Part shown: one piece after another, positions 1 through 44,221 of the stretch | Position numbering within the stretch: the stretch's first letter is position 1 | Layout: every line of letters begins with the position of its first letter | Virus record (IMG/VR): IMGVR_UViG_3300047160_000952 | Strand: one strand, 5' to 3' | DNA from: a virus | DNA: 44,221 nt | The notes under the pieces: model-generated | The model's input: the letters and a program-made list of their open reading frames with translations, nothing else | What the model was told of the DNA's origin: nothing | The model's database searches: none | Made by a program: the position numbers and the translations under genes

Positions 1-97
1 CTGCGCGCGTATGAAGCCGGCGTGGACGTGTACAAGCTCATGGCCGCGAAGCTGTACAACATCGCGATCGAGCAGGTCAGTGACGAGCAACGGCGCA
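1..97. repeat. Terminal overlap copy 1 (identical to 44125..44221)
   Basis: By eye, ctgcgcgcgtatgaagccggcgtggacgtgtacaagctc...gagcaacggcgca matches exactly at both window ends. Confidence 0.95.
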
Positions 98-735
98 TTG
101 CGAAGAACTTGGTGCTGGGCTGTGGCTACCAACTGGGTGGCGCCAAGTTCGTGGACTACGCGGCCAACGCAGGCGTGATCATCACTGAGGACTTCGCATT
201 CAAGGCCGTGCGTGCGTACCGCAAGTCGGTGCCGAACATCGTGGCGTCCTGGAAGGAGGTCGAAGCCCTTTGTGTCTTCGCCATCCAGAACCCGGGCATG
301 GTTGCCAGCGGGCTGAAGTGCCGGTACTACATGCGCAAGCACTGGCTGTGCATTCAGCTGCCGTCGGGTCGTGAGATTCGCTACCCGTACGCGCGCGTCA
401 CGCTGGTGGAGCGCTACGGCAAGCCGCACTGGCAGATCAGCTTCCGTACCGAGGTCAAGGGCTTCTTCCGCCGCGAGACCACCTACGGCGGCAAGCTGAT
501 CGAGAACATCGTGCAGGCCATTGCACGCGATGTGATGATGGAAGGCATGCTGGCCGCTGAGACCAACGGCTATCCGGTGTTCGGGACGGTGCATGACGAG
601 CTGCTGACGCTGCGCAAGCGGGGCACCAGCGACATCCCGTTCCTTGAGAAGTTGATCTGTCCAAAGCTGGCGTGGACGCGTGGCATGCCGTTGCATGCGA
701 AGGGATTCATCTGTGAGCGCTACGAGAAAGGCTGA
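1..735 (+). CDS. DNA polymerase I (family A), C-terminal segment; same gene as 42832..44221 across the circular junction
   Basis: Frame 1 is open from base 1. It carries family-A motif-B-like RRIAKNLVLGCGYQLGG and motif-C-like GTVHDELL. Bases 1-97 duplicate 44125-44221 in the same frame (44124 is divisible by 3). Confidence 0.9.
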   Translation: MRAYEAGVDVYKLMAAKLYNIAIEQVSDEQRRIAKNLVLGCGYQLGGAKFVDYAANAGVIITEDFAFKAVRAYRKSVPNIVASWKEVEALCVFAIQNPGMVASGLKCRYYMRKHWLCIQLPSGREIRYPYARVTLVERYGKPHWQISFRTEVKGFFRRETTYGGKLIENIVQAIARDVMMEGMLAAETNGYPVFGTVHDELLTLRKRGTSDIPFLEKLICPKLAWTRGMPLHAKGFICERYEKG

Positions 736-2989: not shown

Positions 2990-3622
2990 ATGAACATCGT
3001 CGTATTACACAACCAAGCCACGGTCAAGCCGTTCTCGGTGAACGCGGTCGAGAAGTTGCCGCCGTACTACACCGACCCGCACGCACTGGCCGTGCTGCGC
3101 TACCAGCACAGTCCCTATACTGCGCGTCGTCGCGTGTTCGAGCGGGCCATCGAGATGGAGGCCACCAAGCTGGTCATCGTCATGGGTGGCGTGGGTCTGC
3201 TGCACCGCGCGCACTGGAACGGCAAAGGCCCCAGGACCGAAGCCCGGTACATGAACGAGGCGCAGACGCATGGTCTCTGGAACTACATCGACCGGCTGCT
3301 CGACCGCTACGGCCACGTCTACGTCCCGCCCATGGCCTGGATGCGTCCGTGGAAGATCAGGCCGAAACCTAGCGACCACGTCACCAGCATCAACAACCCG
3401 ACGCTACCGATGGTAGCCGGTTACCGTGTGAAGGCGCTGGCTGAACTGGACGACCTGTCCAACGTCGGCGTGGGTGAAGCGTTGACCAAGCGCGGGTACG
3501 ACAGCTTCACCATTCAGGATTACTTTTTCACAACCCCCGGCAACCTCGACCGTCTCGACGAAACCGGCAGCGCCGCAACCTGGAGCAAGAACTATGAACG
3601 TGCAATCTCTCGTCTCGCGTGA
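2990..3622 (+). CDS. Hypothetical protein (210 aa), first gene of the modification block
   Basis: A strong RBS (caggagg) lies 5 nt upstream of the ATG. Codons are GC3-biased and the 3' end overlaps the next gene by 29 nt. I recognise no family. Confidence 0.85.
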   Translation: MNIVVLHNQATVKPFSVNAVEKLPPYYTDPHALAVLRYQHSPYTARRRVFERAIEMEATKLVIVMGGVGLLHRAHWNGKGPRTEARYMNEAQTHGLWNYIDRLLDRYGHVYVPPMAWMRPWKIRPKPSDHVTSINNPTLPMVAGYRVKALAELDDLSNVGVGEALTKRGYDSFTIQDYFFTTPGNLDRLDETGSAATWSKNYERAISRLA

Positions 3623-4457
3623 CTACTCGAACAGCTGGCGCGACTTCGCGACCGACCTGTTCAAGTACGAGGACGCCGACCCAGGCTACCTGCTGCTGAA
3701 GCGCAGCGGTCTCGACCGCAACACGATGCTGCGGTACGTGATGGCTTGGTGCACGTACTACAACCCGGGGATCGCTGCCGTCGCGTGCCAGTACCAGGGC
3801 CAGAAGTTCTGGGACTACCTGTTCGCCGTGTACGCGACGGCCCAGCGCGCCAGCGAGCGCCGGCACTTCAGGGGCACGGCAGGCATGCAGGCGCTGCACC
3901 AGTGGTCGTGCTCGAAGCCCGAGGCACTCATCGAAGGCACCTACGGCCGCACGTACCTCGACGTGCGCAAGAACATGCAGGGCATCGCGCAGATGGGCGA
4001 CTACTTCTACTGGAAGCTGGCCGACGTGTGGGACACCGTGTTCGACATGCCGGTGGACTTCACCGAGTGCGAGAAGTACATGCCCAAGGTGCCGAAGCAG
4101 GGCGCGGAGCTGATCAACGCGTCTCTGGATCGCAGGTACTACCCAAAATACGGCGCGGATGGGTGGCTCGTGGATACGATGCGGCCCATCACGCAACACA
4201 TCCAAGGCGTGCCGTACAAGGGCAAGAAGCCGGGCGTGAAGCTGGCGCTGCAGGAGGCCGAAACCGTCTGCTGCGTGTTCAAGCAGCACGTGAAGGGCAA
4301 GCACCGCATGGGCACCCGCACGCTCAAGGCATACCGTCGACTGCTGTCGGTGCAGCACGAGTCCAAGAACGCGCGGAAGCTGCTGGACGGGCTGCACGCG
4401 GGCGGCATCTGGACGCCGGCCCGACTGGACACCGTGTTCAGCTTTGTGCAGCCGTGA
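3594..4457 (+). CDS. aGPT-Pplase-like protein (alpha-glutamyl/putrescinyl thymine pyrophosphorylase superfamily, non-clade-1), tentative
   Basis: It shares two blocks with ORF 32059..32871: QGIAQMGDYFYWKLADVWD vs HGIGSFIGGQIIADLKE, and PKVPKQGAELI vs VPGPGSKRGAALL. It is translationally coupled to the P-loop kinase and ThyA-like genes. Confidence 0.55.
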   Translation: MNVQSLVSRDYSNSWRDFATDLFKYEDADPGYLLLKRSGLDRNTMLRYVMAWCTYYNPGIAAVACQYQGQKFWDYLFAVYATAQRASERRHFRGTAGMQALHQWSCSKPEALIEGTYGRTYLDVRKNMQGIAQMGDYFYWKLADVWDTVFDMPVDFTECEKYMPKVPKQGAELINASLDRRYYPKYGADGWLVDTMRPITQHIQGVPYKGKKPGVKLALQEAETVCCVFKQHVKGKHRMGTRTLKAYRRLLSVQHESKNARKLLDGLHAGGIWTPARLDTVFSFVQP

Positions 4458-5035
4458 GCACGCTGGTCTACGTCCACGGCACCAACGGCAGCGGCAAGTC
4501 CACGCTGGCCCGCATGGTCATTGCCGCCGCTGGTGGGCAGACGGCCTACGACCGGCACCCAAAGCTCGCTAGGGCCGCGTCCACGCACACGGCTAGGGGG
4601 TTGGTGCTGCTGGGTCGTTACCGCGCTGCCTGCGGGGGCGTCGACCTGATTGCGCCGTACCAGGACGTGCTCCCCGAGATCAAGCGTCAGCGCAAGAAGC
4701 ACGAGGACATCTTCGCCGAGGGCCTGATCACGCCGGGCGTCCAGAGCTGCACGCAGTTCGCCATGCAGTTCGACCACGCCTACTTCATCCACCTGGACAC
4801 ACCAGAGGAGCAGTGCCACGCCAACATGCTCAAGCGCCGTGCGCGCATGGGCAAGGCCGACCAACCCTACGACCCCAAGAACATCTACGGCAAGGCCCGC
4901 AGCGCACGCAGCTGGGTCGCCAACTTGCAACGAAACGGCCTGAACGCAGTCGGGCTACAGTTCCCTGAGGCACGGGCAACCGTGTTCAACCTGCTCGGCC
5001 TGCCCGAGCCCACCATCGACGACATCCTGGAGTGA
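4454..5035 (+). CDS. P-loop kinase (candidate 5-hmdU DNA kinase or dNMP kinase)
   Basis: Walker A is GTNGSGKST, about 10 residues from a GTG start that overlaps the upstream stop (GTGA at 4454-4457). Only the last 193 codons of track ORF 3746..5035 look coding. Confidence 0.8.
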   Translation: MSTLVYVHGTNGSGKSTLARMVIAAAGGQTAYDRHPKLARAASTHTARGLVLLGRYRAACGGVDLIAPYQDVLPEIKRQRKKHEDIFAEGLITPGVQSCTQFAMQFDHAYFIHLDTPEEQCHANMLKRRARMGKADQPYDPKNIYGKARSARSWVANLQRNGLNAVGLQFPEARATVFNLLGLPEPTIDDILE

Positions 5036-6129
5036 CCATGATTCACAACCCGACGAACCTTCGCCAAGGCCCCTGGGGCTTTGGTCTCACCGTTGACAAC
5101 GTCAACGAAGCCCTGCCGATGGGACTGCAGCTCGTGCAGCAGGTCGGTGTCCCGCGTTCGTCGCGCGGCATCGACACCATCAAGGTGCCCGGCCCGGTCA
5201 GTACCATCTACCGCACCCCGACGCGTCGCGTGCTGTTCGACGAGCAGCGCGATGCCAACCCGTTCTTCCACCTGATGGAGTCCCTCTGGATCCTCGGCGG
5301 CAGCAACAAGGGCGACCTCCCGTTCCACTACCTCGCACGGTACAAGGACTTCAGCGACGACGGCGTGACGCTGCACGGCGCCTACGGTGCACGCTTGCGC
5401 GCGTGGCCCAACGAGCACTCGTGGGACGGCAAAATCGACCAGCTGCTGGGAGTCATCGACCTGCTCCGCAGCAAACCCGACAGCCGGCAGGCGGTCGTGA
5501 GCATTTGGGATCCGAATCGCGACCTGGGCACCGTGACCAAGGACATGCCGTGCAACGACATGGTCATGTTCGCCATCGAGGACGGCATGCTCGACATGCA
5601 AGTGAACAACCGCAGCAACGACGTGATCTGGGGCGCCTACGGTGCCAACGCGGTGCAGTTCAGCATGCTGCACGAGATCGTCGCCATCGCCTGCGGCGTC
5701 GAGATCGGCTACTACGTCCAGAACAGCTGGAACTACCACGTCTACCCGAGCAACCCGTTCTGGCAGAAGTTCCTGGCCGGCGAGCACGACCACGGCGACA
5801 AAGTCAATCCGTACATGTCGGCCGACACGCAACCGTACGCGCTGGCCACGTCGCCGGCCGACGCGCTGATGTTCCTGGAGGACTGCCGCTTCCTGTGCGA
5901 CTGGTTCGAGAGCGACCCGGCGCTGCGCGCACCCAGCAAGGTCGAGGCCCTGCCGTTCAGAACGACGTACTTCAACAAGGTCGTCGTCCCGACGATGGCC
6001 GCGTACGAGGCATTCAAGGACAAGAACTGGGACAAGGCCATCCGCTGGGCGCAGGAAGTCGAGGCCAATGACTGGTCGGCCGCGATGACCCAGTGGCTCG
6101 TGCGTCGCATGGTGAAGGCGCAAGCATGA
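5032..6129 (+). CDS. Thymidylate synthase-fold enzyme (candidate dUMP hydroxymethylase)
   Basis: TS-family motifs are RDANPFFHLMESLWILGG, HGAYGARLR, DQLLGVIDLLRSKPDSRQAVVSIWDP, catalytic-Cys context MPCNDMV and NNRSNDVIWGAYGANAVQF. There is a C-terminal extension of about 100 aa. The GTGA overlap at 5032-5035 couples it to the kinase. Confidence 0.9.
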   Translation: MTMIHNPTNLRQGPWGFGLTVDNVNEALPMGLQLVQQVGVPRSSRGIDTIKVPGPVSTIYRTPTRRVLFDEQRDANPFFHLMESLWILGGSNKGDLPFHYLARYKDFSDDGVTLHGAYGARLRAWPNEHSWDGKIDQLLGVIDLLRSKPDSRQAVVSIWDPNRDLGTVTKDMPCNDMVMFAIEDGMLDMQVNNRSNDVIWGAYGANAVQFSMLHEIVAIACGVEIGYYVQNSWNYHVYPSNPFWQKFLAGEHDHGDKVNPYMSADTQPYALATSPADALMFLEDCRFLCDWFESDPALRAPSKVEALPFRTTYFNKVVVPTMAAYEAFKDKNWDKAIRWAQEVEANDWSAAMTQWLVRRMVKAQA

Positions 6130-6701
6130 TGTCCGAGTACACCGAAGCCAAGCTGTACCGGGACGCTGGCGCCGTCAAGCGGTTCCACGTCCTGCGCACG
6201 CACCGCGCGCAGTCGGTCGCCGAGCACTCGTTCGGCATGCTGATGCTCCTGAAGCAGGTCATGGAGGCCGGCTTCTGGACGACGCGCGACCAGCTCGAGA
6301 CGTACCACCGCGTCATGCATCACGACCTGCCGGAGTTCTACACGGGCGACATCCCCGGCCCCATCAAGCGTGCGCACCCAGCGCTGGGGCCGCTGCTGGA
6401 CGAGATCGAAGAAGACCTCGCGCCGCTGTACCGCCCCGAAGACACGGACACGGTCATGCACGGCGAGATCACCGCGCTGGTCAAGTGGGCCGACCGCATG
6501 GAGGGCGCGCTGTGGGCCATGGAAGAGCTGCGCATGGGCAACCTGAACATGCGGCCCGTGGTCGAGCGCTACCTGGGCTGGATGACCGCAGCCCGTATCC
6601 CTGACTGCGCGAACGCCTTGACCAAGGAAGTCGTGCAGATCGTCGTCGACGAGTTCGGCATCTTGCCCGCAACGGGCGCAACCCTGGAGATGAAGTCGTG
6701 A
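6126..6701 (+). CDS. HD-domain phosphohydrolase, YfbR-like 5'-deoxynucleotidase
   Basis: RFHVLRTHRAQSVAEHS ... HHDLPEFYTGDIPGPIK matches the YfbR pattern (R..R..E.V.EHS ... HD..E..TGD.P.P.K). An ATGA overlap at 6126-6129 couples it to the upstream gene. Confidence 0.85.
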   Translation: MMSEYTEAKLYRDAGAVKRFHVLRTHRAQSVAEHSFGMLMLLKQVMEAGFWTTRDQLETYHRVMHHDLPEFYTGDIPGPIKRAHPALGPLLDEIEEDLAPLYRPEDTDTVMHGEITALVKWADRMEGALWAMEELRMGNLNMRPVVERYLGWMTAARIPDCANALTKEVVQIVVDEFGILPATGATLEMKS

Positions 6702-7497: not shown

Positions 7498-7523
7498 CGA
7501 CTCTTGAAGCCTCGGCGCAGAAT
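7494..7523 (+). promoter_or_regulatory. Sigma70-like promoter candidate (TTGACG-18-CAGAAT) inside a conserved repeat
   Basis: TTGACG at 7494-7499 and CAGAAT at 7518-7523. The surrounding ~75 nt are conserved with 35662..35735. It lies in the only sizeable gap of this + operon. Confidence 0.4.
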
Positions 7524-7580
7524 GAACTCACTGAACAACACGACGTTGCTCAGACGCAACATCAACCTTCGGAGTTCATC

Positions 7581-7931: not shown

Positions 7932-7943
7932 GAGGTTCGCGCC

Positions 7944-8192
7944 GTGTCCAAGACCAAGCACCTGGACGGCGCCATCGCGGCGCTGTCCCACAAGCCGGGC
8001 ACGGAACGCGCCAAGCGCAAGGCCCAAGTGAACATCATCCTGTACGACCTGGGCGCGACCGGCGTGTCCGTGCAGGTGAACAACAAGGAGGTGTGGCTCG
8101 CGCCTGACATGACGCGCGCCGAAGAAGACGCCGACCGCCGCAAGGCCCGCGCGCAGGCGCTGGGCAAGACTGTCAACATCGAGAAATTCTGA
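7944..8192 (+). CDS. Hypothetical protein (82 aa)
   Basis: GTG start with an AAGAGG RBS 8 nt upstream. Confidence 0.75.
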   Translation: MSKTKHLDGAIAALSHKPGTERAKRKAQVNIILYDLGATGVSVQVNNKEVWLAPDMTRAEEDADRRKARAQALGKTVNIEKF

Positions 8193-8200
8193 GGTACAAC

Positions 8201-8650
8201 ATGATCCACGAATACTGCGTCACCTACGCCCGCGACGGCGAGGAGGTCTTCCACACGCACGTCGAGGACGCCACCGACGAGCAAGCGGCCATCCGTGTTG
8301 CGCTGACCGCCGCGCAGCAAGACATCGACGTGTCGGACTGCGACGTGCGCATCGCGGTGATCAAGCGCCTGCCCAAGGAGCTGAAGCACGTCATCAAGCT
8401 GGTGATGGCGCTGGGCACGTTCGCCGACGCGCTCAAGGTCGTCAAGTCGGCCGGCGGTGCAGAGCTGTTGACCCGCGAATCCATCGAGCGCGGCGTGGCC
8501 CAGTCGGTCGGCGCGCACAAGCGTGAAGGCGTGTGGCTGTTCCCGTCGCAGGAGGCGGAGGTCGAGTACTACCGCCGTCTGGCGACCGTGCTGGACACGG
8601 CCACGCCCGCCCCGCAGGACACTGGCAGGCCCAAAACCAACCTCCACTGA
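8201..8650 (+). CDS. Hypothetical protein (149 aa)
   Basis: ATG start with an upstream GAGG; GC3-biased codons. Confidence 0.8.
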   Translation: MIHEYCVTYARDGEEVFHTHVEDATDEQAAIRVALTAAQQDIDVSDCDVRIAVIKRLPKELKHVIKLVMALGTFADALKVVKSAGGAELLTRESIERGVAQSVGAHKREGVWLFPSQEAEVEYYRRLATVLDTATPAPQDTGRPKTNLH

Positions 8651-25943: not shown

Positions 25944-25995
25944 ATGGGTTCCTTTTGCGAGAAGTTGCGGAACGGGTTCTGTTGGCAGGGGTTGG

Positions 25996-27438: not shown

Positions 27439-27442
27439 GGGG

Positions 27443-29923
27443 TTACTCCTGGGATTGGCTGTCATCTTCTGCCGAGTTATCGGCGAGCACCGGCAGTATA
27501 TCGCACCGGCAGTTCGGGTGCAGCGGGGGGCCGTCGCCACCCTCATCGGGGAAGTCGTCATCGAGCGGAACCTGCACCTTGTCCAGCCCGTTGCACTCAT
27601 CACACGTGTCACCGCCGCCGGTCGACCACTCCTTCATGTCGACGACGCCAGAAGCCTTGTAGCCTTCGAGGTTGCCTTGCACGTCTGCGTAGGCGGTCTC
27701 GGTACGGGCGATGGTCTCTGCACGTTCGTCGCTGAAGCCGTAGTTGTCGGCCAGCGCTGTGGCGATGTCGTCGTTGGTCGCGCCCGACTCGATGCCACTG
27801 ATCAGGTCAGTGCGCAGCATGTCTCGCGTGCTGTCCTCCAAGTCCTTGATCAGCGTAGCGCTGCGCTCGGCAGCGTAGTCCACGGCACGTTCGTTGACTT
27901 GGTCGAGCATGCTGTCGTCGATGTCGCTAAGCACCTGAGCCAGCGCGACTTCACCGGCCTCTTGCGTCATGTCCTCCAGCAGCTCGGCCAAGTCCGGCGC
28001 GATGTCCTGCAGCTCCTCGAACGTCAGCTCGCTGAGCAGGCGCGTCGTCTTCTCGTCGGCGCTGATGGCCGCTTCCTTGACGCCGGCCTTCTCGCCCAGT
28101 TCACGACTGATGCGCTTCCCCGCAGCGGCAAGAGCCGTCTGCACGAGCGTAGTGATACCGCTTGTACACTCCTTCACGGACTTGCGGTTGCGGTTCAGCG
28201 GCTTCACTGCCTTGCGCAGCGAGGCCGCTTGCGTTTTTCCCACCGGTTTCGCCGTACCTCCTTGCGCTGCGACCGGGCCGCCGGGCTTGCCACCCGGGGG
28301 CGGTTGACCGTCTCCTGGTACCTGGGCATTGGGCGCACCCGGTTGGCCCAGCGCAGGAGGTGCTGGGGGCGTCAGCGTGGCCTTTTGCTCCTCCGTCAGC
28401 GCCGGCATGCCCAGCTTGTCGCGCGCCTCGTCCGGCGTCATGATCTTGGCCGTGGTGTAGCCCGTGAGCGTCTGCATCTGGGCCAGCGGCGCGGCTTCCT
28501 CGTCCTCGACCCACTTGAACTCCAGGTCATCGTAGCCGAAGTACTTCCAGATGATGTAGTCCATCATCCCCTTGAACCACTTCATCAGCGGCGTCAGACC
28601 TTCGGCCTGTGCTTGATCCTTCTGGGTCTCGGCAGTCGCACGGTTGACCTGTTTCACCAGCGCAGACGGCGGCAGCGAGAAGCAGAAGCAGATGACACGA
28701 GCCAGCCAGTCGTCCATGTCGTCCTTCAGGCTCTCGCCCTTGGTCGGCGTGTACGCGGTGCCACCGGGCACGAACTTGGCGTGCCGGCGCTGCGCGGTGT
28801 CGCCTTCGAGGATGCTGTCCCAGTACTCCTGGAACAGACGGATCTGGTCGGGCGACCACTCGGTCGGCACGCCGATCAACGCTTCCGGCACGTTGCCTTC
28901 GGTGTAGAACTGCAGCTGGTGCACCTGACGGCGCAACGCGATGTTGACCGTCATGATGATCTGTTCGACCGGGCTGTAGCCGTACATCTTGTGCGTGCGC
29001 ACGTTGCGCGGGCGGTAGATCAGCTCGTCGCGCGTGTAGTTGATGGCCGGCAGACCGTGCATGATCTGCTGGTATGCGGGATCGGGCGGCAGCGGCGTGC
29101 GACCGGTGTCGTCCAGAACGCGCTTGATCGTGCTGCCATCGATCAGCTCCATGGCGTACAAGTCGCCACCGACGGTCATGCGCGGGAACAGCGTGGGCGC
29201 GTCCAGCACCAGCAGATCTTCCAGGATGGCGCGCATCCAGGTGTTCCAGTCGTGCTCCTGGTCGGGGTACTGGAAGAACTTGGTGATCTCCTCGATGCGC
29301 GGGTCTTGCACCGGCAGCTCGGGGATCTCCGGAACATCCTTGGGCTTGGGTGCCAGCGGCGCCGGTTGACTGAACGTGCCGTCACCGTTGTCGACCGGCT
29401 GTTGCGACTCGAAGTCCTTCTGCTGTTGGGCGTTGTCCGCCTTGACCTTCTCAGCGTGCTTCTTGACGGCCTCGACGCGCTTGACCGCCTGCTGGTGCTT
29501 CTCGATCTCGGGCTTCAGACCGATCTGCCACTCCATGGCTTCCATCTGGTCTTTGCGTGTCTCGATGGCGATGCGCAGCAAGTCCAGGTTTTCGGACAGG
29601 TTGCGCAACTGGTGGAAGCTGATGCCTTCGCCGTCGCGTGGCGTGCGGCGCACGTTGACGTTGACCGGGTAGTTGAACGCACGACCGCGGATGCCAGATG
29701 CTTCCGGCACGATAGGTGCGACCGGCTGACCCGGGCCCATCCACTGCGTCGGAGTGCCAGCGTTGATGTGCGGGATCTGGTCACGCGCACCTTGCACCAC
29801 GTCGTCCAGCAGTCCGTTGTCGATGGGCGTCGCTTTGGTGCCAGGGTTCTTGCGCGGCGAGTTGTCGCCGGCACCGAACACGGCCTTGAGCAGCCGGTTC
29901 AAGAGCGTTTGGTTTGCAGCCAC
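27443..29923 (-). CDS. Portal protein fused to a C-terminal Mu F / SPP1 gp7-like head morphogenesis domain
   Basis: 826 aa. The C-terminus ERAETIARTETAYADVQGN...W.TGGGDTCDECNGL...GPPLHPNCRCDILP is the MuF signature. The N-terminal ~520 aa sit where a portal gene is expected, after terL. Confidence 0.9.
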   Translation of the reverse strand: MAANQTLLNRLLKAVFGAGDNSPRKNPGTKATPIDNGLLDDVVQGARDQIPHINAGTPTQWMGPGQPVAPIVPEASGIRGRAFNYPVNVNVRRTPRDGEGISFHQLRNLSENLDLLRIAIETRKDQMEAMEWQIGLKPEIEKHQQAVKRVEAVKKHAEKVKADNAQQQKDFESQQPVDNGDGTFSQPAPLAPKPKDVPEIPELPVQDPRIEEITKFFQYPDQEHDWNTWMRAILEDLLVLDAPTLFPRMTVGGDLYAMELIDGSTIKRVLDDTGRTPLPPDPAYQQIMHGLPAINYTRDELIYRPRNVRTHKMYGYSPVEQIIMTVNIALRRQVHQLQFYTEGNVPEALIGVPTEWSPDQIRLFQEYWDSILEGDTAQRRHAKFVPGGTAYTPTKGESLKDDMDDWLARVICFCFSLPPSALVKQVNRATAETQKDQAQAEGLTPLMKWFKGMMDYIIWKYFGYDDLEFKWVEDEEAAPLAQMQTLTGYTTAKIMTPDEARDKLGMPALTEEQKATLTPPAPPALGQPGAPNAQVPGDGQPPPGGKPGGPVAAQGGTAKPVGKTQAASLRKAVKPLNRNRKSVKECTSGITTLVQTALAAAGKRISRELGEKAGVKEAAISADEKTTRLLSELTFEELQDIAPDLAELLEDMTQEAGEVALAQVLSDIDDSMLDQVNERAVDYAAERSATLIKDLEDSTRDMLRTDLISGIESGATNDDIATALADNYGFSDERAETIARTETAYADVQGNLEGYKASGVVDMKEWSTGGGDTCDECNGLDKVQVPLDDDFPDEGGDGPPLHPNCRCDILPVLADNSAEDDSQSQE

Positions 29924-31260
29924 GGGTTCTCCTTCTTGGCGTCGTCCGCCAGTTGCTTCATGTAGTTCAGCATGCCCATCTGACGCTGCTTGCTCACGGG
30001 TTCGAGCGCGTAGCGGATGGCGTCGATGATGTGGTTGTGCTTGTCCTCGATCTCGTCGGTAGGCAGCTTCGACAGCCGGTCAATTTTGTACGAGTACAGC
30101 CGGAACTCCTCGGCAGTGTGCACGCACCGTGTATGGATGACGACCTTTTCGAAGCTGCGGATGAACGCCACGCCGTCCTCGACGCTGCCCTCACCCTTGG
30201 TGCACGGGACGACGTTGGGGTAGCCGTGCCGTTGGAGGTAGCTGATGGTCTCAGGCCGCGCGCTGTCGGCACGGATCTGGCCCTTCTTGCTGCCAGGGAT
30301 CTTGTCGTAGCACGACGGCAGTACATCACTGTCGATGTTGCATCCGTAGAACTCGTACTCGATGTACAGGCGGTTGTTGGCGATCCAGCACTTGACCAAC
30401 GTGGACGGGTCGGTGAAGCCGAAGTCGGCGCCCTTGTACGGGCCGTCCCAGTCAGGCTCAGGCACGAACGGTTCGATGACGTACTTGCCGCGCATGATCT
30501 GCGCCGCGCTGTTCTTGCGGAACTTGCCGCCCCAGACGTGCTCGGCGGCCTCGGGGTCGATGGCGTAGAGGTAGTCCTTCTCAGCGCGCAGTTCGTCGGG
30601 AAACCACGGATTGTCCTGCCAGCCGATCTCGACCACGATAGCGCCGGGCGGCTGATTCTTGATGAACCGCTTGCTGGTCGGGTCGGTCTCTTCGTCAGGA
30701 TTGAACGTGACCCAGATCTCGCTGCCCGGCTTGCGGATCGTCGGGATCAGCACGAGCCAGCTGTAGTCGCTGACCTTCTCCGCTTCTTCGACCCAGACGA
30801 TGTCGATGCCTTCCATCGACTTGATCTTGGTCACGTTGTTGCGGATGCCCGCGAAGATGAACTCGCTGCCCGTGGTCTTGCAGACGATGGTCTTCTTCTG
30901 GATGTCGTAGACCTCGGCCAACCACGGGTCGGCCATGATCTGGTCGCTCAGCAGCTTGTGTACCGAGTCCTCGATGGAGACTTGCAGTTCACGCGCGCAC
31001 AGGATGCGCAGCTTCTTTTGCGCTGCCATGACCAGCAGCACCTTCGCCACGCCCCAGCTCTTGGCACCACCGCGACCGCCGTGAAGTACCTTGTACCGCG
31101 CCTTGTTGAACAGGATGCGGAGCTTGCTCGGGATGCGCAGCGTGGGCCGTTCCGTGCGCTTGGCCTTGGGCGGCTCAGGCGCATCGTACAGCTCAGGGTA
31201 CAGAGCATGGAGGTTACGCTGACTCCGCAACAGAGCGCGCTCTGAGACACGCAGGGCCAC
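29899..31260 (-). CDS. terL: Terminase large subunit (PBSX/Terminase_3-like)
   Basis: Walker A context is YKVLHGGRGGAKSWGVA, followed by LCARE and VWVEEAE. A C-terminal nuclease-like region is present. The start is GTG at 31260. Confidence 0.9.
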   Translation of the reverse strand: MALRVSERALLRSQRNLHALYPELYDAPEPPKAKRTERPTLRIPSKLRILFNKARYKVLHGGRGGAKSWGVAKVLLVMAAQKKLRILCARELQVSIEDSVHKLLSDQIMADPWLAEVYDIQKKTIVCKTTGSEFIFAGIRNNVTKIKSMEGIDIVWVEEAEKVSDYSWLVLIPTIRKPGSEIWVTFNPDEETDPTSKRFIKNQPPGAIVVEIGWQDNPWFPDELRAEKDYLYAIDPEAAEHVWGGKFRKNSAAQIMRGKYVIEPFVPEPDWDGPYKGADFGFTDPSTLVKCWIANNRLYIEYEFYGCNIDSDVLPSCYDKIPGSKKGQIRADSARPETISYLQRHGYPNVVPCTKGEGSVEDGVAFIRSFEKVVIHTRCVHTAEEFRLYSYKIDRLSKLPTDEIEDKHNHIIDAIRYALEPVSKQRQMGMLNYMKQLADDAKKENPWLQTKRS

Positions 31261-31262
31261 GA

Positions 31263-31457
31263 TCAGTCCTTGCAGGTCGGCTTCATGCGGTAGGTGCCGG
31301 CACCAGCACGCGGGCCAGATTGCTCACGTGGCGTGGGCAGCGACATGACGTGATGGCGGTGCGGACATTCGACCATGCTGCACGCGCTGAACGTGCGCTG
31401 GTCGTGATGGCACTGCTCGTAGTGCCGGCACTTGATGGGTGGGCTGACTTGTCCCAT
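31263..31457 (-). CDS. Cys/His-rich small protein (64 aa) between terS and terL
   Basis: MGQVSPPIKCRHYEQCHHDQRTFSACSMVECPHRHH.... Gaps to both neighbours are 2 nt, and codons are GC3-biased. Confidence 0.6.
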   Translation of the reverse strand: MGQVSPPIKCRHYEQCHHDQRTFSACSMVECPHRHHVMSLPTPREQSGPRAGAGTYRMKPTCKD

Positions 31458-31459
31458 AC

Positions 31460-31582
31460 TCACACCCAGCGCAGATGCTGCAGCAGCCACACCACGAGGT
31501 GCGAAAGGCCGCTGAACAACAGGTAGCCGATGACCATGACGATGATGGTTGCGACGATGGCGTCACGCGTGCTCCAGAACAT
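31460..31582 (-). CDS. Small single-pass membrane peptide (40 aa)
   Basis: MFWSTRDAIVATIIVMVIGYLLFSGLSHLVVWLLQHLRWV, with a 1-nt gap after the terS stop. Confidence 0.5.
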   Translation of the reverse strand: MFWSTRDAIVATIIVMVIGYLLFSGLSHLVVWLLQHLRWV

Positions 31583-31583
31583 G

Positions 31584-32018
31584 TCAGTTCTCCTGAGTGA
31601 GTTTGGGCTTGCCGTCGCCGTCGCTCTCGACGAACTCGATGAGGAACGGCACCGGGCCGGTCTGCTGATCACCACTGCCTTGCGTGCGCACGGCGTTCTT
31701 CAACTCCACCGTGCTGATCTTGCCGTGCATGTAGGGCGCGGCGGCTTCGGCGTACTTGGCTGCGAACAAGCTGCCGCCCACCATGAACGCGCGACGCATG
31801 GCCATGACCATCACGTCCAGCGGCGTGGCGTCTTCGGGCAGCTCCATCGCCTCTTCCGGCGGCGGCTTGCGAGTGCCGGCAGCATAGCCGTCAGCGATGG
31901 CTTTGGTGCGGCGCACGCTGGCGCCCTTGTTCATGGACGCATTGGCCTGCGCCTTGGTGGCGGGCTTGCGTGCTGCGGTCTTCTTGGCCGGCTGTGCGGC
32001 CCTGCGCTGGGTAGCCAT
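31584..32018 (-). CDS. terS: Terminase small subunit candidate
   Basis: Basic N-terminus (QRRAAQPAKKTAARKPATKA) followed by ...AAKYAEAAAPYMHGKIS, resembling small terminases of similar phages. It lies upstream of terL. The alternative GTG start is at 32084. Confidence 0.6.
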   Translation of the reverse strand: MATQRRAAQPAKKTAARKPATKAQANASMNKGASVRRTKAIADGYAAGTRKPPPEEAMELPEDATPLDVMVMAMRRAFMVGGSLFAAKYAEAAAPYMHGKISTVELKNAVRTQGSGDQQTGPVPFLIEFVESDGDGKPKLTQEN

Positions 32019-32058: not shown

Positions 32059-32871
32059 TCAGAGCTTGCGCTTGTACGTGCCACCGTTGACTACACGCAT
32101 GTACTTCTCGAACTCGCAGAGGATGTTCTGCGCGTCCTGCGCGTCCACGCTGTAGCTCGCACCCATGCTGGCCAAGATCTTGTTGGCCCAGTCGCGCACC
32201 TGGATGACCGTTGCGTGCCACGTAAGGTCGGAGTTCAGCAGAGCGGCGCCACGCTTGGAGCCAGGGCCGGGCACAGCGAAGTCGTCCAGGTCAGGCAGCT
32301 GCATCATCCAAGGCATGTGCTCCTTGAGGTCAGCGATGATCTGACCGCCGATGAATGACCCGATGCCGTGCAGCTTGCGCAGGCGCTTAGCGTACAGGCT
32401 CAGGCTACCGGCAGGCTTGTTCAGGATGTGACGGTTCGTCCACGCGTCTTCCCAGACCTGATGTGCATAGAACTCAGCCCATGGCGTTGCGTGGCCGTGT
32501 GTGGTGGCCATGTACGCTTGGCTGCGGATGGGCAAACGAAGCTGCAAGCGTGCGTCCAAAACATCCTGGGCGCGCTGCGCGACGTAGCCAATAGGCGACC
32601 CCACTGCACCTACCGACAACAGCGCATGCACCGTGTCCGCGTGGTTGACGCAGCGTGCCACCAGCACCACGTGCGGCAGCGCACCCAGAGGGACATCGCG
32701 GTAGAGCTTGAAGAGCGCGATCGTACCGGCGTCCAGCGTGCGCTTCAGGTTGCAGAAGCGGTACATGCGAAGGATGTCGTCCGTCGGAGCCGGGCCGCCG
32801 TGCTTGCGCCACAGATAGGCCGTGTGCCGTTGCTGTATGAAGTGGGCGAGCTGGTCGTGGATGTGTGCCAT
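32059..32871 (-). CDS. aGPT-Pplase clade-1-like protein (DNA base hypermodification family)
   Basis: N-terminal signature HTAYLWRKHGGPAPTDDILRMYRFCNLKRTLDAGT, plus LHGIGSFIGGQIIADLKE and VPGPGSKRGAALL blocks, as I recall for this family. An AAGGAA RBS is present. It is the first gene of the late operon. Confidence 0.7.
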   Translation of the reverse strand: MAHIHDQLAHFIQQRHTAYLWRKHGGPAPTDDILRMYRFCNLKRTLDAGTIALFKLYRDVPLGALPHVVLVARCVNHADTVHALLSVGAVGSPIGYVAQRAQDVLDARLQLRLPIRSQAYMATTHGHATPWAEFYAHQVWEDAWTNRHILNKPAGSLSLYAKRLRKLHGIGSFIGGQIIADLKEHMPWMMQLPDLDDFAVPGPGSKRGAALLNSDLTWHATVIQVRDWANKILASMGASYSVDAQDAQNILCEFEKYMRVVNGGTYKRKL

Positions 32872-33010
32872 GTCGGTTCCTTGTGTTCAGAGCGTGATGG
32901 GGTGGTGGCGGACTCGGCAAATTTTGCGAGTGGACGTGGGGGTGTGGTTAAGAGAACCCACCCGAGCGACCTCCCGACCGTGGTGCCGTGCGACCTGAGT
33001 TGGGATTGCC

Positions 33011-33200
33011 AGTTCCAGGGTGGGTCACTGAGGGAGCGCTTGGTTCCTTCCGATCGCGCCACAAGGTCGGTCGGTTACCGGTTCCACCCCCTATAGCCCT
33101 TTAGGGGCTAGGGGGTCGGAACCATCGACCAGACTGCCATTGATGGTTCCACTGGAACTACCTGGAACTACCCTGGAACCGGAACTACCCCTGGAACCAT
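33011..33200. repeat. Iteron/palindrome-rich non-coding region (at least 10 GGAAC/GTTCC cores)
   Basis: AGTTCCAGGGTGGG at 33011; palindrome 33080-33123; inverted repeat GGAACCATC...GATGGTTCC at 33118-33150; direct CTGGAAC(T/C) repeats starting at 33152, 33162, 33173 and 33191 (10-11 bp phasing). Confidence 0.85.
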
Positions 33201-33206
33201 CGTTGT

Positions 33207-35519
33207 TCAGAGGATTTCCTCCTGAGCCTTCAGGCGCAACCAAGTGCGGCCCATCTTGGTGATGCGCACCTGATTTTGACCGCCGCTGGACTCCATCTCG
33301 ATCCAGTCTTTCTCCGTGTACAACTCCAACAACGCCTTGATACGGCGACGGTGAATGTGTGCGCCAATGGACACCTGCGACTGGCTGATGAAGTCGTCAT
33401 GTTCTGCGAGGAACGCCAGCACAGCCTGCGCGCTGGACATGTCACGGAACTCTTCGTCTTGCATGACCTGCCGTTGCTTGGCTTCAGCGAGTTGGTGTGC
33501 TTCAAGGCGCACGAGTTCGGGACGGGGCATGAGCAAGGCTCCTTTGCGTTCGAAGATGTGAGTGCCCAGAGGGGCGGAGTAGTTGTGCTTGACATGTTTG
33601 AAGACCGCGTACCGCGCGACGGTCTCAGCCGTTGCGGGCAGGCCGTAGTTCAGTGCGTCCTTCATGGGCATGGACACCAAGACACCCACCGACCGCGCGT
33701 TGTCGGCAAAGCTGCTGGCGCCGCGCAAAGCTCCTTGGTTGATCTCGTCCAGCTGTGCCCAGGAGCCGGCCTTGGACATGTGGTGCAGCACCATGACCGC
33801 GCAGTTGGCCTGCTTGGCAATGACCGTCAGGGTCTGCATGTACGCGGCCATGTCGGCGATGTTGTTCTCGTCGAGCTGGTGGGTGTACACCGCCGGGTCA
33901 AGGATCAAGAGCTTTACCTTGTTGCGCGTCAGGAAGCCTATGAGCCAGTTGACGCGCTCTGTGCGCTCGGGCGTCTCGAAGCGGTCGGACTTGGTGAGGA
34001 TGAGCCACGAGGCCGCGTCGTCATCGGCCGCGTACATCAGCAGGTTCTGGGCGAGCGTGCCACGCACGTCGTACAGCGCGTCGTACACTCCACCGTCTGC
34101 TTCAGCGAGCTGCGTGACCAGAGCGTGAACGCGCTTGTGCATCTCCTGCTTGTCGTCTTCGTACGATACCGCGAGCGACCTGATGGGGCCACTGGGCTTG
34201 AAGGGGCCGAACTCACGACCCATCGCAGCGTAGACCGCCATGTGCAGCGCGAGCATGGACTTGCTGACACCACCGGGGCCAGCAATCACCGTGACTTTGC
34301 CGACCGGGGCCATCTGCTCGATCGCCCATTCACGTGCGACAGGCTCGGTGGCAAGGTACTGCAGCAGGTTCGCCTTCTCGAGGAACGTGGCGTCATCGTC
34401 CAGCACACCAGCCTCGGCCTGTTCTGCGGCCGACATGTAGTCGTTCTCACGCAAGAACCTGACGAGCGTGCCCATGGTCAGATGAGGCTGTCCGTCCGTG
34501 TCGGGCGCGGTGTCGAAGCACTTGACAGCGGCGCGTGGATTGCCGTCGTAGTTCGCCTCGTAGTACACGGTCTGCGTGTCGTTCTCGGAGTCATGCTCGT
34601 CAAGGAACGGACAGACGATGTAGTGCATGCCCTTGTGCTTGGGGTTCTCGCGCAGGTACAGGCCGGCTACCTTGATGGCTTGCAGGACGAGATCAGCCTT
34701 TGCCTCAGCACGTGCAAGTCCGTCTTTGGCGTCGTCAGCCGCAGTGTCCCAATCGGCAACATCGCGTGCGTCAGACCGCTCGGAAACCGTGCCCTTGCTT
34801 GCGACAGTTCGCCAAGGCTTGCCCTGATGGTAGCTTTCGTAGTACGAACCGCCGTCGAGCTGGGCCGGTAGGTACATGGCCTGCGAGAGTACCCAGCTCT
34901 CGGGTTGAGTCCATTCCTCGACGCCCAGTTTCTTCGCGGCTGACAGCGTGCTTGCTCGTAGAGCCGCCACTGCATGTTCCACTCCGCCATCAGCTGCTGG
35001 GTCGATTGGTTGGCCGAGGGGGAGCACAACTCGGAACCGAGGAGCATCATCTGTGTGGGATAGGCTGGTGTAGACCCAGCCTTCGCCGCCCAGCTCCTCA
35101 AGGCGCTGCGCAACGAGTTCAGGGCTTGGCGGAGGAACATCGTGGTCTCCTTGTTCGATGTCGAGGGTCAGGTAGGTGCGTGCCTTGACGTGCGTGTCGT
35201 CGCGCTTGCGGCAGGTGCCACCGACGAAGTACGGCAGGTGCCGCTTGACGTTGCCCTTCTCACGCTTCGACATACCTTGATAGGTATCGAAGTCGGTGTC
35301 GACTTGCAACGGTTCGTGGAAGGAGTCACGCAGGTCAGCGAGTGTCGCGTCCTCACCACTGAGCCGTGGCTTGGTGTTCGCGACGCCACCTTGCGTGACG
35401 TAGCTGTAGGGGTTGGCTGGCATGGGTTCGTGGCTGTCGTTGGTGTAGGCTGGGAGGCCGTATTGTGGGCGACCGGTTCCAGGGGTAGTTCCAGGGGTGC
35501 TACCAGTGGTATCTGGCAC
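33207..35519 (-). CDS. Primase-helicase: AEP prim-pol-like N-terminus, RepA/AAA_25-like P-loop helicase core, C-terminal winged-helix
   Basis: YLTLDIEQGD, YTSLSHT and RVVLPL resemble AEP motifs. Walker A is VIAGPGGVSKSMLAL, Walker B LLILDP, followed by VMVLHHMSKAG. The C-terminal ~80 aa look like a wHTH. The start is uncertain (GTG 35519 or ATG 35423). Confidence 0.9.
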   Translation of the reverse strand: MPDTTGSTPGTTPGTGRPQYGLPAYTNDSHEPMPANPYSYVTQGGVANTKPRLSGEDATLADLRDSFHEPLQVDTDFDTYQGMSKREKGNVKRHLPYFVGGTCRKRDDTHVKARTYLTLDIEQGDHDVPPPSPELVAQRLEELGGEGWVYTSLSHTDDAPRFRVVLPLGQPIDPAADGGVEHAVAALRASTLSAAKKLGVEEWTQPESWVLSQAMYLPAQLDGGSYYESYHQGKPWRTVASKGTVSERSDARDVADWDTAADDAKDGLARAEAKADLVLQAIKVAGLYLRENPKHKGMHYIVCPFLDEHDSENDTQTVYYEANYDGNPRAAVKCFDTAPDTDGQPHLTMGTLVRFLRENDYMSAAEQAEAGVLDDDATFLEKANLLQYLATEPVAREWAIEQMAPVGKVTVIAGPGGVSKSMLALHMAVYAAMGREFGPFKPSGPIRSLAVSYEDDKQEMHKRVHALVTQLAEADGGVYDALYDVRGTLAQNLLMYAADDDAASWLILTKSDRFETPERTERVNWLIGFLTRNKVKLLILDPAVYTHQLDENNIADMAAYMQTLTVIAKQANCAVMVLHHMSKAGSWAQLDEINQGALRGASSFADNARSVGVLVSMPMKDALNYGLPATAETVARYAVFKHVKHNYSAPLGTHIFERKGALLMPRPELVRLEAHQLAEAKQRQVMQDEEFRDMSSAQAVLAFLAEHDDFISQSQVSIGAHIHRRRIKALLELYTEKDWIEMESSGGQNQVRITKMGRTWLRLKAQEEIL
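35475..35498. repeat. Tandem GTTCCAGGGGT repeats; 35475-35492 is the exact inverted copy of 33181-33198
   Basis: GGTTCCAGGGGTAGTTCC at 35475-35492 is the reverse complement of GGAACTACCCCTGGAACC at 33181-33198. Confidence 0.85.
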
Positions 35520-42616: not shown

Positions 42617-42835
42617 ATGCCCCTGCTCTTTCCCACCGACCCCGCGCTCAAGCACCGCAACTACAACGGTTCCTGGCGCGCCCGTGAGAAGCCGCACCTT
42701 GTTCGGTACGCCAACGGTGACTGGTTCTGCACGGCTCTCGATAACAACGGGTATCCGTGGTGCGCGATCATGCCGACCGCCAAAGAAGCGTACGACAAGG
42801 TCGTCGGCAACTGCCTCAAGAGGTACAAGCTGTGA
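42617..42835 (+). CDS. Hypothetical protein (72 aa)
   Basis: A CAGGAG RBS is present. The stop overlaps the polymerase GTG start (GTGA). Confidence 0.75.
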   Translation: MPLLFPTDPALKHRNYNGSWRAREKPHLVRYANGDWFCTALDNNGYPWCAIMPTAKEAYDKVVGNCLKRYKL

Positions 42836-44221
42836 TCCCACAAGTCACCATCGACGAGGACATCGGACACCTCGACTACGAAACGTTCTGCGAGCTGGAC
42901 ATCCGCAAGGTCGGTGGCCATCGCTACGCGAAGCACCCGTCGTGTGAAGTGCTGATGGCGTCGTACAAGTTGCCCGGCATGGCCGACGTGGTCACGTGGT
43001 TGCCGTGGTGCGAAGAGCCGCCCGAAGACCTCGTCGAGTACATCGAGAACGGCGGCAAGCTGGGTGCGCACAACGCGTCATTCGAGCGCAACGTCACGGC
43101 CTACGCGCTGTCGCGCATGCACCCCAAGTTCCCCAAGGTCAATAACAACCAATGGGTGTGCACCGCAGCCAAGGCCGCAGCGTCGGGCCTGCCAAGGAGC
43201 TTGGACAAGGCGCTCAAGGCCCTTGAGGCACCCATCGAGAAGAACACCGACGGCACCGCGTTCATCAAGATGTTCTGCAAGCCCCGCAAGCCGACCAAGA
43301 AAGACCCGCGCACGCGCATCCGACCGCGCGACAACTGGCCCGAGTTCGAGAAGGGCATCAGGTACTGCGAGGACGACGTGCGTGGTGAAGAATGGTTGCA
43401 CCACGCCATCCCCGACCTGTCGGCGCGCGAGCAGCGGTTCTTCATCCTGGACATGGTCATGAACGACCGTGGTCTGCCCATCGACATCCCGATGGTAGAG
43501 AAGGCCCTGCGTGTCGTGCAGTCGCTGGAGGCCGACATTGCGGCCGAGGTCGCCAAGCTGTCCGGGGGACTGCGCGCGACCCAGGTGCAGAAGATGCTGG
43601 ACATGTTCGCCAAGCGTGGGCTCGACTTGGAGAACATGAAGAAGATCACCATCGAGAACGCGCTCAAGGATACGACGCTCGACCGCACCACGCGACGACT
43701 GCTGGAGCTGCGGATCGAGGCAGGCAAGGCGTCCACCAAGAAGCTGGTGTCGATGCTGCTGTGCGCTGATCCGTATGAGTGGGTCGTGCAGGGCGGCTTC
43801 CTGTACCACGGTGCCCACACTGGCCGGTACGCGGGTCGTCTGGTGCAACCGCACAACTTCATCCGAGGCATGCTCAAGGCCAACATGCGCGAGTTCATCT
43901 TCGCGCTGCTGGGCATGGACGACGCCGACTACATGCGGATGCTCATCGATGGCGTGCCGTTCCGCGCCAAGGACGGCTTCGCGCTGACCAGCGGCCCGAT
44001 CGACGCCATTAGCCAGTGCATGCGGGGCTTCATCAAGGCGCCCAAGGGCTACGAGTTCGCAGTCGTCGACTACACGGCCATCGAGGCACGGGTGCTGGCG
44101 TGGCTGTGCGACGAAGAGGAGATGCTGCGCGCGTATGAAGCCGGCGTGGACGTGTACAAGCTCATGGCCGCGAAGCTGTACAACATCGCGATCGAGCAGG
44201 TCAGTGACGAGCAACGGCGCA
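42832..44221 (+). CDS. DNA polymerase I (family A) with a 3'-5' exonuclease domain, N-terminal segment; it runs off the window and continues at 98..735
   Basis: My translation from GTG 42832 gives VIPQVTIDEDIGHLDYETFCE (Exo I), GAHNASFE (Exo II), YCEDDV (Exo III) and FAVVDYTAIEARVLAW (motif A). There is no stop before the window end. The total is about 675 aa once joined. Confidence 0.9.
   Translation, partial: MIPQVTIDEDIGHLDYETFCELDIRKVGGHRYAKHPSCEVLMASYKLPGMADVVTWLPWCEEPPEDLVEYIENGGKLGAHNASFERNVTAYALSRMHPKFPKVNNNQWVCTAAKAAASGLPRSLDKALKALEAPIEKNTDGTAFIKMFCKPRKPTKKDPRTRIRPRDNWPEFEKGIRYCEDDVRGEEWLHHAIPDLSAREQRFFILDMVMNDRGLPIDIPMVEKALRVVQSLEADIAAEVAKLSGGLRATQVQKMLDMFAKRGLDLENMKKITIENALKDTTLDRTTRRLLELRIEAGKASTKKLVSMLLCADPYEWVVQGGFLYHGAHTGRYAGRLVQPHNFIRGMLKANMREFIFALLGMDDADYMRMLIDGVPFRAKDGFALTSGPIDAISQCMRGFIKAPKGYEFAVVDYTAIEARVLAWLCDEEEMLRAYEAGVDVYKLMAAKLYNIAIEQVSDEQRR
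44125..44221. repeat. Terminal overlap copy 2 (identical to 1..97)
   Basis: 97/97 identity by eye with the window start. Confidence 0.95.

Follow-up and report, generated by a model that had tools for sequence, protein, structure and literature searches.

The window examined here is the whole 44,221-nucleotide (nt) stretch of the IMG/VR virus record IMGVR_UViG_3300047160_000952, and the gene in question, at 32059..32871, encodes a genuine, intact but divergent clade-1 aGPT-Pplase, a member of a known phage family found alongside thymine hypermodification based on 5-hydroxymethyl-dU. A preliminary description, made from the sequence, had assigned the 270-amino acid (aa) protein to clade 1, and the profile search bears this out, returning PF18723 and not an unrelated family. 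The gene lies on the minus strand, directly upstream of a terS-like gene and the genes for the terminase large subunit (TerL) and portal, and apart from the clade-2 aGPT-Pplase (PF18724) gene on the plus strand, also as described. New here is a divergent clade-1 member in an atypical, lineage-conserved position. The two ends of the window (1-97 and 44125-44221) are an identical 97-nt overlap, the removal of which gives a 44,124-bp circle. In this circle, the family-A DNA polymerase (PolA) closes into a 700-aa open reading frame (ORF; 42757..44124 joined to 1..735), which aligns along its whole length with the polymerase of phage MW202655 at 70% identity, whereas joining the raw ends leaves PolA open. 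Thus, the window represents the full genome of a phage, either circular or circularly permuted.

Residues 4-261 of the clade-1 protein match positions 3-275 of the 281 in the PF18723 profile (E 3.3e-22; 79.6 bits, with a cut-off of 25). The protein also matches PHROG 2396, and PF18723 is present in all of its 48 database relatives. The signature, GIGSF...ADL and PGPG..RG blocks quoted in the preliminary description are all found (LWRKHGGPAPTDDILRMYRFCNLKRTLDAGT at residues 20-50, GIGSFIGGQIIADL at residues 169-182 and PGPGSKRG at residues 201-208). Searching 50,697 phage records by tblastn identified 74 homologs, every one below 30% identity, including M6 gp55, YuA gp14 and PaMx11-type proteins; some of these records are labelled 'aGPT-Pplase1' or 'clade 1'. 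Alignments of 29 and 42 sequences (including M6 gp55 and a PaMx11-type protein) have 24-27 invariant positions, mostly polar: R15, D31, N41, R44, D47, R73, N76, Y120, D181, K183 and D194, followed by GPGS (GPG 202-204), G208, Q245, Q248, N249, C252, E253, K256 and Y257. The window protein retains all of them, including C252-E253-x-x-K256-Y257.

The profile match and invariant residues are shared with M6 gp55, YuA gp14, ViI gp160, the ΦW-14 protein (UniProt C9DG43) and the C-terminal half of SP10 gp186. As for known clade-1 members, the genome also encodes a dUMP hydroxymethylase, an HD hydrolase, a kinase for 5-hydroxymethyldeoxyuridine (5-hmdU) in DNA, and a clade-2 transferase. The protein differs in being 26-28% identical to members from cultured phages and at most 36% identical to relatives outside its own lineage, and in its N-terminal motif, PAP--TDD, which lacks the P-W-T of the usual PxPWTxDP. 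NCBIfam has no model for this protein, the terS-like protein or the clade-2 transferase, and phmmer and clade-1 profile searches of Protein Data Bank (PDB) sequences returned nothing meaningful. A megablast search of the 29-36 kb region against the phage collection gave no match, which indicates a phage without a close cultured relative.

The genes are organised in two divergent arms. The plus arm runs from ~36.3 kb, across the junction, to ~9 kb and encodes, in order, a PD-(D/E)XK nuclease, an Enc34-type single-stranded DNA-binding protein, PolA, a VRR-NUC protein, an SNF2 helicase, a 210-aa ORF and the modification block. The minus arm begins with the primase-helicase gene and continues, after a gap of 335 nt (32872..33206), with the clade-1 gene, the terS-like gene, a small Cys/His-rich ORF, TerL and the portal-MuF gene, followed by genes for the head, the tail and a GH108 endolysin. 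The clade-1 gene was previously described as the first one after an iteron-rich region on the leftward unit; it does follow the repeat cluster, but the primase-helicase gene precedes it on the same strand. The clade-1 and terS-like genes are separated by 40 nt on one strand with no terminator-like element between them, and their co-transcription is therefore likely.

To place this arrangement among relatives, an alignment of 42 family members was used for the search, and the best 80 of 504 related IMG/VR loci were fetched. The neighbourhoods of 86 clade-1 loci (numbered with the prefix L) were surveyed over ±10 kb by tblastn and iterated hidden Markov models (HMMs); absences are provisional, given the ±10-kb limit and the few seeds of the HMMs. 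A hydroxymethylase gene is near clade 1 in 65 of the 86 loci, on the same strand and usually starting within ~100 nt downstream. An HD hydrolase is found in 49, a 5-hmdU DNA kinase in 25 (often immediately upstream) and a clade-2 transferase in nine. The hydroxymethylase gene adjoins clade 1 in at least 39 loci and the kinase gene is immediately upstream in at least 13. M6 and PaMx11-like phages show the canonical order: kinase, clade 1, hydroxymethylase, HD hydrolase. This adjacency, seen in most of the 80 related loci, is lacking in the window, where the clade-1 gene is ~15-27 kb from the kinase and hydroxymethylase genes, on the opposite strand.

Among the surveyed loci, only the window, L003/L006, L004 and L022 have clade 1 in a terminase neighbourhood. 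In four diverged contigs clade 1 is followed by terS after 40-77 nt, with clade-1 identity falling as low as 34%. Relative to L003, L004 and L022, identities to the window are 61, 49 and 34% for clade 1, 74, 64 and 52% for the primase, and 71, 52 and 45% for terS. Clade 1 thus diverges in step with primase and terS, but faster, and this parallel divergence fits vertical inheritance of the clade-1/terS pair. L022 retains the pair despite an inverted primase gene. The arrangement is a lineage-specific but stable, non-random exception. Pfam scans of the clade-1 neighbours in L022 and on the very large contigs L020 and L026 were uninformative. Separation of clade 1 from the other modification genes is in itself not new, as dispersed hypermodification genes are already known; only M6-like phages cluster them tightly (PNAS 2018).

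The same backbone without the gene is seen in MW202655 (Bacteriophage sp., L087), a complete circular genome of 38.5 kb. Its identities to the window are 74% for PolA, 73% for SNF2, 61% for the transferase, 51% for the kinase, 51% for the hydroxymethylase, 55% for the HD hydrolase and 55% for the primase-helicase (annotated 'repA'). Using hmmsearch (E <= 1), we identified no clade-1 gene in this genome. Its slot between repA and terS (24514-28201) holds an opposite-strand gene for an endonuclease V (T4 DenV-like) and two tiny ORFs, and the helicase-terS slot of Rhodoferax phage P26218 contains a single small hypothetical gene with a gap behind it. Both phages share the backbone of the window and have a terS-like gene directly before TerL and downstream of the helicase gene; MW202655 differs from the window in having P22-like structural genes. 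Because the kinase and hydroxymethylase genes adjoin each other directly in the window as well as in MW202655, neither genome has an emptied clade-1 slot. Within this group of phages, clade 1 is an accessory gene in a variable slot where the replication module meets the packaging module, which is the simplest explanation for the gene being apart. The slot appears, from its contents, to be a hotspot for accessory genes directed at DNA bases.

Table 1. Features of the window, and of related loci, that bear on the clade-1 gene. Positions with an L number refer to that locus.
Feature	Position	Strand	Remarks
Clade-1 aGPT-Pplase gene	32059..32871	-	ATG start; 270 aa; PF18723 full length; phrog_2396; AlphaFold2 fold
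terS-like protein	31584..32018	-	144 aa from ATG at 32018; 40 nt downstream of clade-1 gene
Small Cys/His-rich ORF	31263..31490	-	Between terS and TerL; ...CSMVECPHRHH...
Terminase large subunit TerL	29899..31260	-	PF04466 E 2e-34; PF17288 E 2e-20
Portal fused to Mu F-like head-morphogenesis domain	27443..29923	-	826 aa; PF04860 and PF04233
GCAAAATTTG element	32918..32927	-	~50 nt before ATG; unique in window; also in L003/L006
GGAAC/GTTCC short-repeat cluster ('iteron-rich region')	33012..33202		Directly downstream of primase-helicase gene
GC-rich stem-loop	33079..33124	-	Flanked by GGTTCC/GGAACC; without U-tract
Primase / AAA_25 (RepA-type) helicase	33207..35519	-	PF13481 E 6e-30; PHROG primase/helicase families
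Clade-2 aGPT-Pplase / amino acid:DNA transferase	3594..4457	+	PF18724 E 9e-25
P-loop kinase, probable 5-hmdU DNA kinase	4436..5035	+	Start codon uncertain; Walker A GTNGSGKST
Thymidylate-synthase homolog, probable dUMP hydroxymethylase	5032..6129	+	PF00303 E 1e-23
HD-domain (YfbR-like) nucleotide hydrolase	6093..6701	+	PF12917 E 9e-15
TET-associated glycosyltransferase	L012 9174-10864; L015 8889-10852; L075 9092-10825
TET-associated glycosyltransferase and nucleotidyltransferase	L005 329-3884
GT4-like glycosyltransferase	L043 8662-10759		Upstream of clade 1
Radical-SAM/SPASM enzymes	L019 8039-10825; L056 7774-9595; L085 8931-10849		Upstream of clade 1

In the modification block (Table 1), the probable kinase has a weak PF18748 match (E 2e-3, below the cut-off), matches an HMM built from M6 gp54 and PaMx11-type kinases, and is in the same position as its MW202655 counterpart. 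The probable hydroxymethylase, the counterpart of the 'pyrimidine hmase' of MW202655, scores under all NCBIfam cut-offs for ThyA equivalogs. Its gene shares 4 nt with the end of the kinase gene, including the stop, and the usual clade-1 slot is thereby closed in the window. For the clade-2 transferase, over 120 homologs with 54-72% identity are found on contigs of 37-47 kb, and for the clade-1 protein there are only seven at 49% or above. The 210-aa ORF (2990-3622, plus strand) ends 29 nt into the clade-2 gene, matches nothing in Pfam or NCBIfam and lacks a counterpart in MW202655; it may be a tailoring or accessory protein of the block that is specific to this lineage.

On the terminase side, the terS-like protein has no Pfam or NCBIfam match. 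Its homolog in P26218, gp42, runs into the start of TerL, and the layout there is helicase, gap, gp42, TerL, portal; the homolog in MW202655 is likewise directly before TerL, and those in L003, L004 and L022 come after clade 1. We accept it, on position and homology, as the putative small terminase subunit. The idea that it is instead a partner of clade 1 was rejected because its homologs directly precede TerL in phages lacking an adjoining clade-1 gene. The clade-1 protein itself has no terS match in Pfam and PHROG scans. The Cys/His-rich ORF is kept in L003 (63 aa; tblastn E 2.7e-8) and L004 (61 aa) and could encode a zinc-binding accessory protein of the terminase. Another candidate for the small ORF between terS and TerL, a hydrophobic peptide of 40 aa (31460..31582), was rejected, as it is not conserved. 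The portal-MuF fusion also occurs in L003 and L004, and in L004 two added genes of ~435 aa (5638-8257), absent from the window and L003 and with no Pfam match on record, lie between TerL and portal.

The label 'terminase small subunit' is carried in GenBank/RefSeq by the 5-hmdU kinase of M6, gp54 (L001 6408-6971), and in PAKlein3 (L002 5351-6807) by both the kinase and the clade-1 homolog. The genes so labelled belong to the nucleotide-metabolism block, and no TerL lies anywhere near them. The label is apparently a mis-annotation passed on from record to record, and inference from context could be misled by it.

Upstream of the clade-1 gene, GGAAC/GTTCC occurs 10 times in 33001-33300, where 0.68 copies are expected per 300 nt; this is the sole such cluster in the window. 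It shows inverted symmetry, and copies of the motif likewise occupy the corresponding gaps in L003, L004 and L006. The cluster is a candidate replication origin, regulatory site or array of binding sites. A tandem pair of GTTCCAGGGGT was also observed at 35476-35499, inside the 5' end of the primase-helicase gene. The stem-loop within the cluster is stable (81-nt fold, -42.9 kcal/mol, z -4.86, with none of 200 shuffles equally stable), and comparable CCCCC...GGGGG hairpins are present in L003 and L004. It possibly terminates the primase-helicase transcript, or is part of an origin. The GCAAAATTTG element is a candidate promoter or operator. A scan of 31.0-36.6 kb for sigma-70 promoters and intrinsic terminators returned no promoter and no minus-strand terminator, and the hairpin was not called. 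Hairpin, repeats and GCAAAATTTG could mark either a terminator with a late promoter behind it or an origin of replication next to the primase-helicase gene. Late expression of the clade-1 gene is plausible from this layout, and read-through from the upstream primase-helicase unit, which is of an early type, would be equally possible.

The position next to terS raises the possibility that, in this lineage, the enzyme is produced alongside the terminase and works on concatemers during or shortly before packaging, with the result that only mature DNA enters the capsid. It might, for example, finish the modification or convert leftover 5-hmdU or its phosphorylated form (5-PmdU). Such coupling would account for the 40-77 nt spacing across four contigs, to 34% identity and through the inversion in L022, and for the strong hairpin that separates the gene from the primase-helicase. 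It sits poorly with the ~95% of related loci surveyed in which clade 1 is placed among early-type nucleotide-metabolism genes, with the unrelated cargo (endonuclease V) carried by the slot elsewhere, and with the lack of promoter evidence in the scanned region. Moreover, MW202655 and P26218 share the terS-like gene and are counted as packaging without clade 1, although the absence of clade 1 from P26218 was not separately tested. We regard this explanation as quite unlikely, and any functional tie of the placement to packaging as correspondingly improbable.

The AlphaFold2 model of the clade-1 protein (pLDDT 94.3, pTM 0.90) is all-helical. Its top matches in BFVD are all clade-1 proteins, from phiRSL1 (template-modelling (TM) score 0.82), SP10 (the kinase fusion F8WQ30, 0.80) and ΦW-14 (0.73), with E values of 2e-12 to 4e-8. 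The best PDB match is the clade-2 transferase PaMx11 gp46 (8z2n_B; probability 0.99, TM 0.47, 257 aligned columns), followed by OGG, AlkA, MutY and Nth/NTHL1 (E 0.16-1.1, TM 0.28-0.38). The model thus has an all-helical, helix-hairpin-helix (HhH), DNA-glycosylase-like fold, and its likeness to 8z2n is, on the model, at the superfamily level only. The clade-2 proteins (PaMx11 gp46, PDB 8Z2N; M6 gp51; the Pplase2 proteins of YuA and SH-Ab 15599) share the HhH fold of two helical bundles and a conserved Cys near the C-terminus that follows a Q-[DE]-x-[QE]-[NT] block. Clade 1 differs in lacking significant sequence similarity to them (hhalign E 0.05-0.11), in a TM score of just 0.47, in metal-ligand positions that are apparently replaced, and in being dispensable in the reconstituted pathway. 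At E <= 0.01 the protein matches PF18723 alone, with no match to the PF18724 profile, and BLASTP against the window's own PF18724 protein is not significant (E 0.17). The two were previously called paralogs; both do belong to the aGPT-Pplase superfamily, but they are superfamily relatives only.

This relationship raises the possibility of a second transferase, in which clade 1 would install a different group, or perform a second step, on 5-PmdU and so produce mosaic or two-step modification. The shared superfamily and fold, with 8z2n as top PDB match, are in keeping with it, as are the invariant Cys-Glu motif in the C-terminal helix and the presence in the genome of a kinase that makes 5-PmdU. 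In clade 2, a cysteine adds to C6 of the flipped 5-PmdU (Cys247 in PaMx11 gp46; PMC11472151), and the metal ligands E-T lie four residues before it (PMC13458397). The features that define this clade are the catalytic Cys (PaMx11 Cys247; 15599 C226) and nearby acidic or metal-ligand residues (E222/T223, D25), and the PF18724 family comprises amino acid:DNA transferases (PMC8989533). BLASTP (E 0.17) and one hhalign run (E 0.11), neither significant, pair the cysteines of the two clades collinearly with the HhH, aligning clade-1 Q-N-x-L-C252-E with clade-2 E-T-x-x-C. In a deeper hhalign run the partner was a different one, the N-terminal RFCN motif (E 0.047, not significant). As these results are contradictory and insignificant, we do not claim equivalence of the cysteines at the residue level. 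If the collinear alignment is right, the clade-2 E-T metal pair is Q-N in clade 1.

The biochemistry and the gene content also speak against a second transferase. M6 gp55 is dispensable for phosphorylation and glycine transfer in lysates; it could be omitted from the reaction that yields the glycinylated intermediate, and later steps are assigned to other enzymes (PMC8989533). No role is assigned to clade 1 in any solved pathway, and none to ViI gp160; two later structural and biochemical papers do not mention clade 1. We found no report of a second modified base attributable to clade 1. The kinase and clade-2 genes are commonly missing within 10 kb of clade 1 (detected in 25 and nine of the 86 loci), with glycosyltransferases or radical-SAM enzymes instead, so the phosphate leaving group would often be unavailable. 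One clade-1 plus one clade-2 gene is moreover the usual state in ΦW-14, ViI and M6 (PMC5889632, Table 3). The earlier suggestion that two such genes could mean two nucleophiles or two-step chemistry is unsupported or overstated, given this usual pairing and the omissible gp55, and it is further undercut by MW202655, which has the same transferase-kinase-hydroxymethylase block without clade 1. A second transferase is, in our judgement, improbable.

A glycosylase, or an anti-host or protective factor, is suggested by the other structural matches; the HhH protein would excise or shield T/U in host DNA or 5-hmdU in phage DNA. In common with the HhH-GPD glycosylases (OGG, AlkA, MutY, EndoIII/NTHL1), it has the general HhH architecture and an Asp downstream of the hairpin. 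The protein contains both GIGSF...ADL and the invariant D194, ~23 residues past the hairpin, a position that we take to be similar to that of the catalytic Asp of HhH-GPD enzymes. The tight linkage to hydroxymethylase whatever the decoration enzyme also fits. Against this, the glycosylase matches are weak (TM 0.3-0.38, E > 0.1) and come without a sequence match, the invariant Cys-Glu motif belongs to clade 1 and is absent from glycosylases, the nearest solved structure is a transferase, and we found no report of glycosylase activity for the clade-1 family. We consider such a role very improbable.

The family name points to a different role. PF18723, once called aGPT-Pplase1, is now named 'HMUDK_hel' ('5-hmdU DNA kinase, helical domain') in Pfam, presumably after the fusion of kinase and clade 1 in SP10 gp186. 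As that name implies, clade 1 could be a non-catalytic, base-flipping DNA-binding module that presents 5-hmdU to the P-loop kinase. The SP10 fusion itself (PMC5889632, Table 3; BFVD F8WQ30, TM 0.80) favours this, as does the position of the kinase gene, which directly precedes clade 1 in M6, in PaMx11-like phages and in 13 or more viral loci. However, M6 gp54 phosphorylates 5-hmdU DNA in reactions without gp55, most clade-1 loci have a hydroxymethylase but no detectable nearby kinase, and MW202655 retains the kinase without clade 1. In the window itself the gene is ~15 kb from the kinase, on the other arm. The invariant Cys, Glu, Asp, Asn and Arg also exceed the needs of a passive module, and the conservation of so many polar residues argues for an enzyme. 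We think a kinase helper unlikely.

In loci without a recognisable kinase or clade-2 gene, TET-associated glycosyltransferases (PF20691) were observed just upstream of clade 1, and other such loci have a GT4-like glycosyltransferase or radical-SAM/SPASM enzymes there (Table 1). In the glycosyltransferase and radical-SAM loci the hydroxymethylase always follows clade 1, on the same PolA-SNF2 backbone. This gene content suggests uncharacterised 5-hmdU decoration pathways, possibly leading to glycosylated hmU, with clade 1 as a shared component. Clade 1 is the constant companion of the hydroxymethylase across differing decoration chemistries. This argues against both a second amino-acid transferase and a mere helical domain of the kinase, and points to a step on 5-hmdU DNA itself.

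We lean, with slight confidence, towards a joint reading in which the protein is an auxiliary clade-1 enzyme acting on 5-hmdU-derived bases and its gene was inserted in a variable slot and is co-transcribed with terS. The protein would bind phage DNA after replication, flip out a 5-hmdU-derived base and act on it catalytically. Catalysis is proposed on the basis of 24 invariant residues, most of them polar, among them Asp194 beyond the HhH and the Cys252-Glu253 pair of the last helix; Cys252 would probably take the part of the C6-attacking cysteine of clade 2. The step would be auxiliary to amino-acid or amine transfer, either preparing or presenting 5-hmdU or disposing of undecorated 5-hmdU or 5-PmdU. 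The gene probably arrived by insertion or translocation into a slot tolerant of recombination, and its predicted transcription with terS would give later or longer expression than a place beside the early nucleotide-metabolism genes. The placement is unusual and probably incidental, and not by itself a sign of a mechanistic link to packaging.

Several points weigh against this reading. The case for catalysis comes from conservation alone, with no activity reported for any clade-1 protein. The pairing of C252 with the clade-2 catalytic Cys is contradictory across BLASTP and the two hhalign runs, and the E-T ligands of clade 2 would be Q-N in clade 1. No promoter was found in the scan, so the transcription unit with terS is a prediction. 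Finally, the pair is kept to 34% identity despite the primase inversion in L022, and the linkage could be selected and not incidental. In a bolder version, which we consider doubtful, the clade-1/terS pair would be functional. Made with the packaging machinery, the enzyme would perform a terminal step, independent of kinase and transferase, on 5-hmdU-derived bases in concatemeric DNA (e.g., clearing undecorated 5-hmdU or 5-PmdU). Clade 1 would be a generic 5-hmdU-DNA enzyme across amino-acid, glycosyl and radical-SAM pathways, and not a 'kinase helical domain'.

Adjacency to the terminase is, alone, a modest curiosity. Clade 1 matters more as the one recurrent component of phage thymine-hypermodification sets that is still without an assigned function. 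The window and L003, which have the transferase-kinase-hydroxymethylase cassette with clade 1, and MW202655, which has the same cassette without it, provide a natural comparison, and in the window the clade-1 gene is uncoupled from the transcription unit of the cassette. DNA composition, or reconstituted pathways, with and without clade 1 could reveal what it contributes. The link of clade 1 to the hydroxymethylase, independent of the kinase, confines the hypotheses to a step that takes place on 5-hmdU DNA itself.

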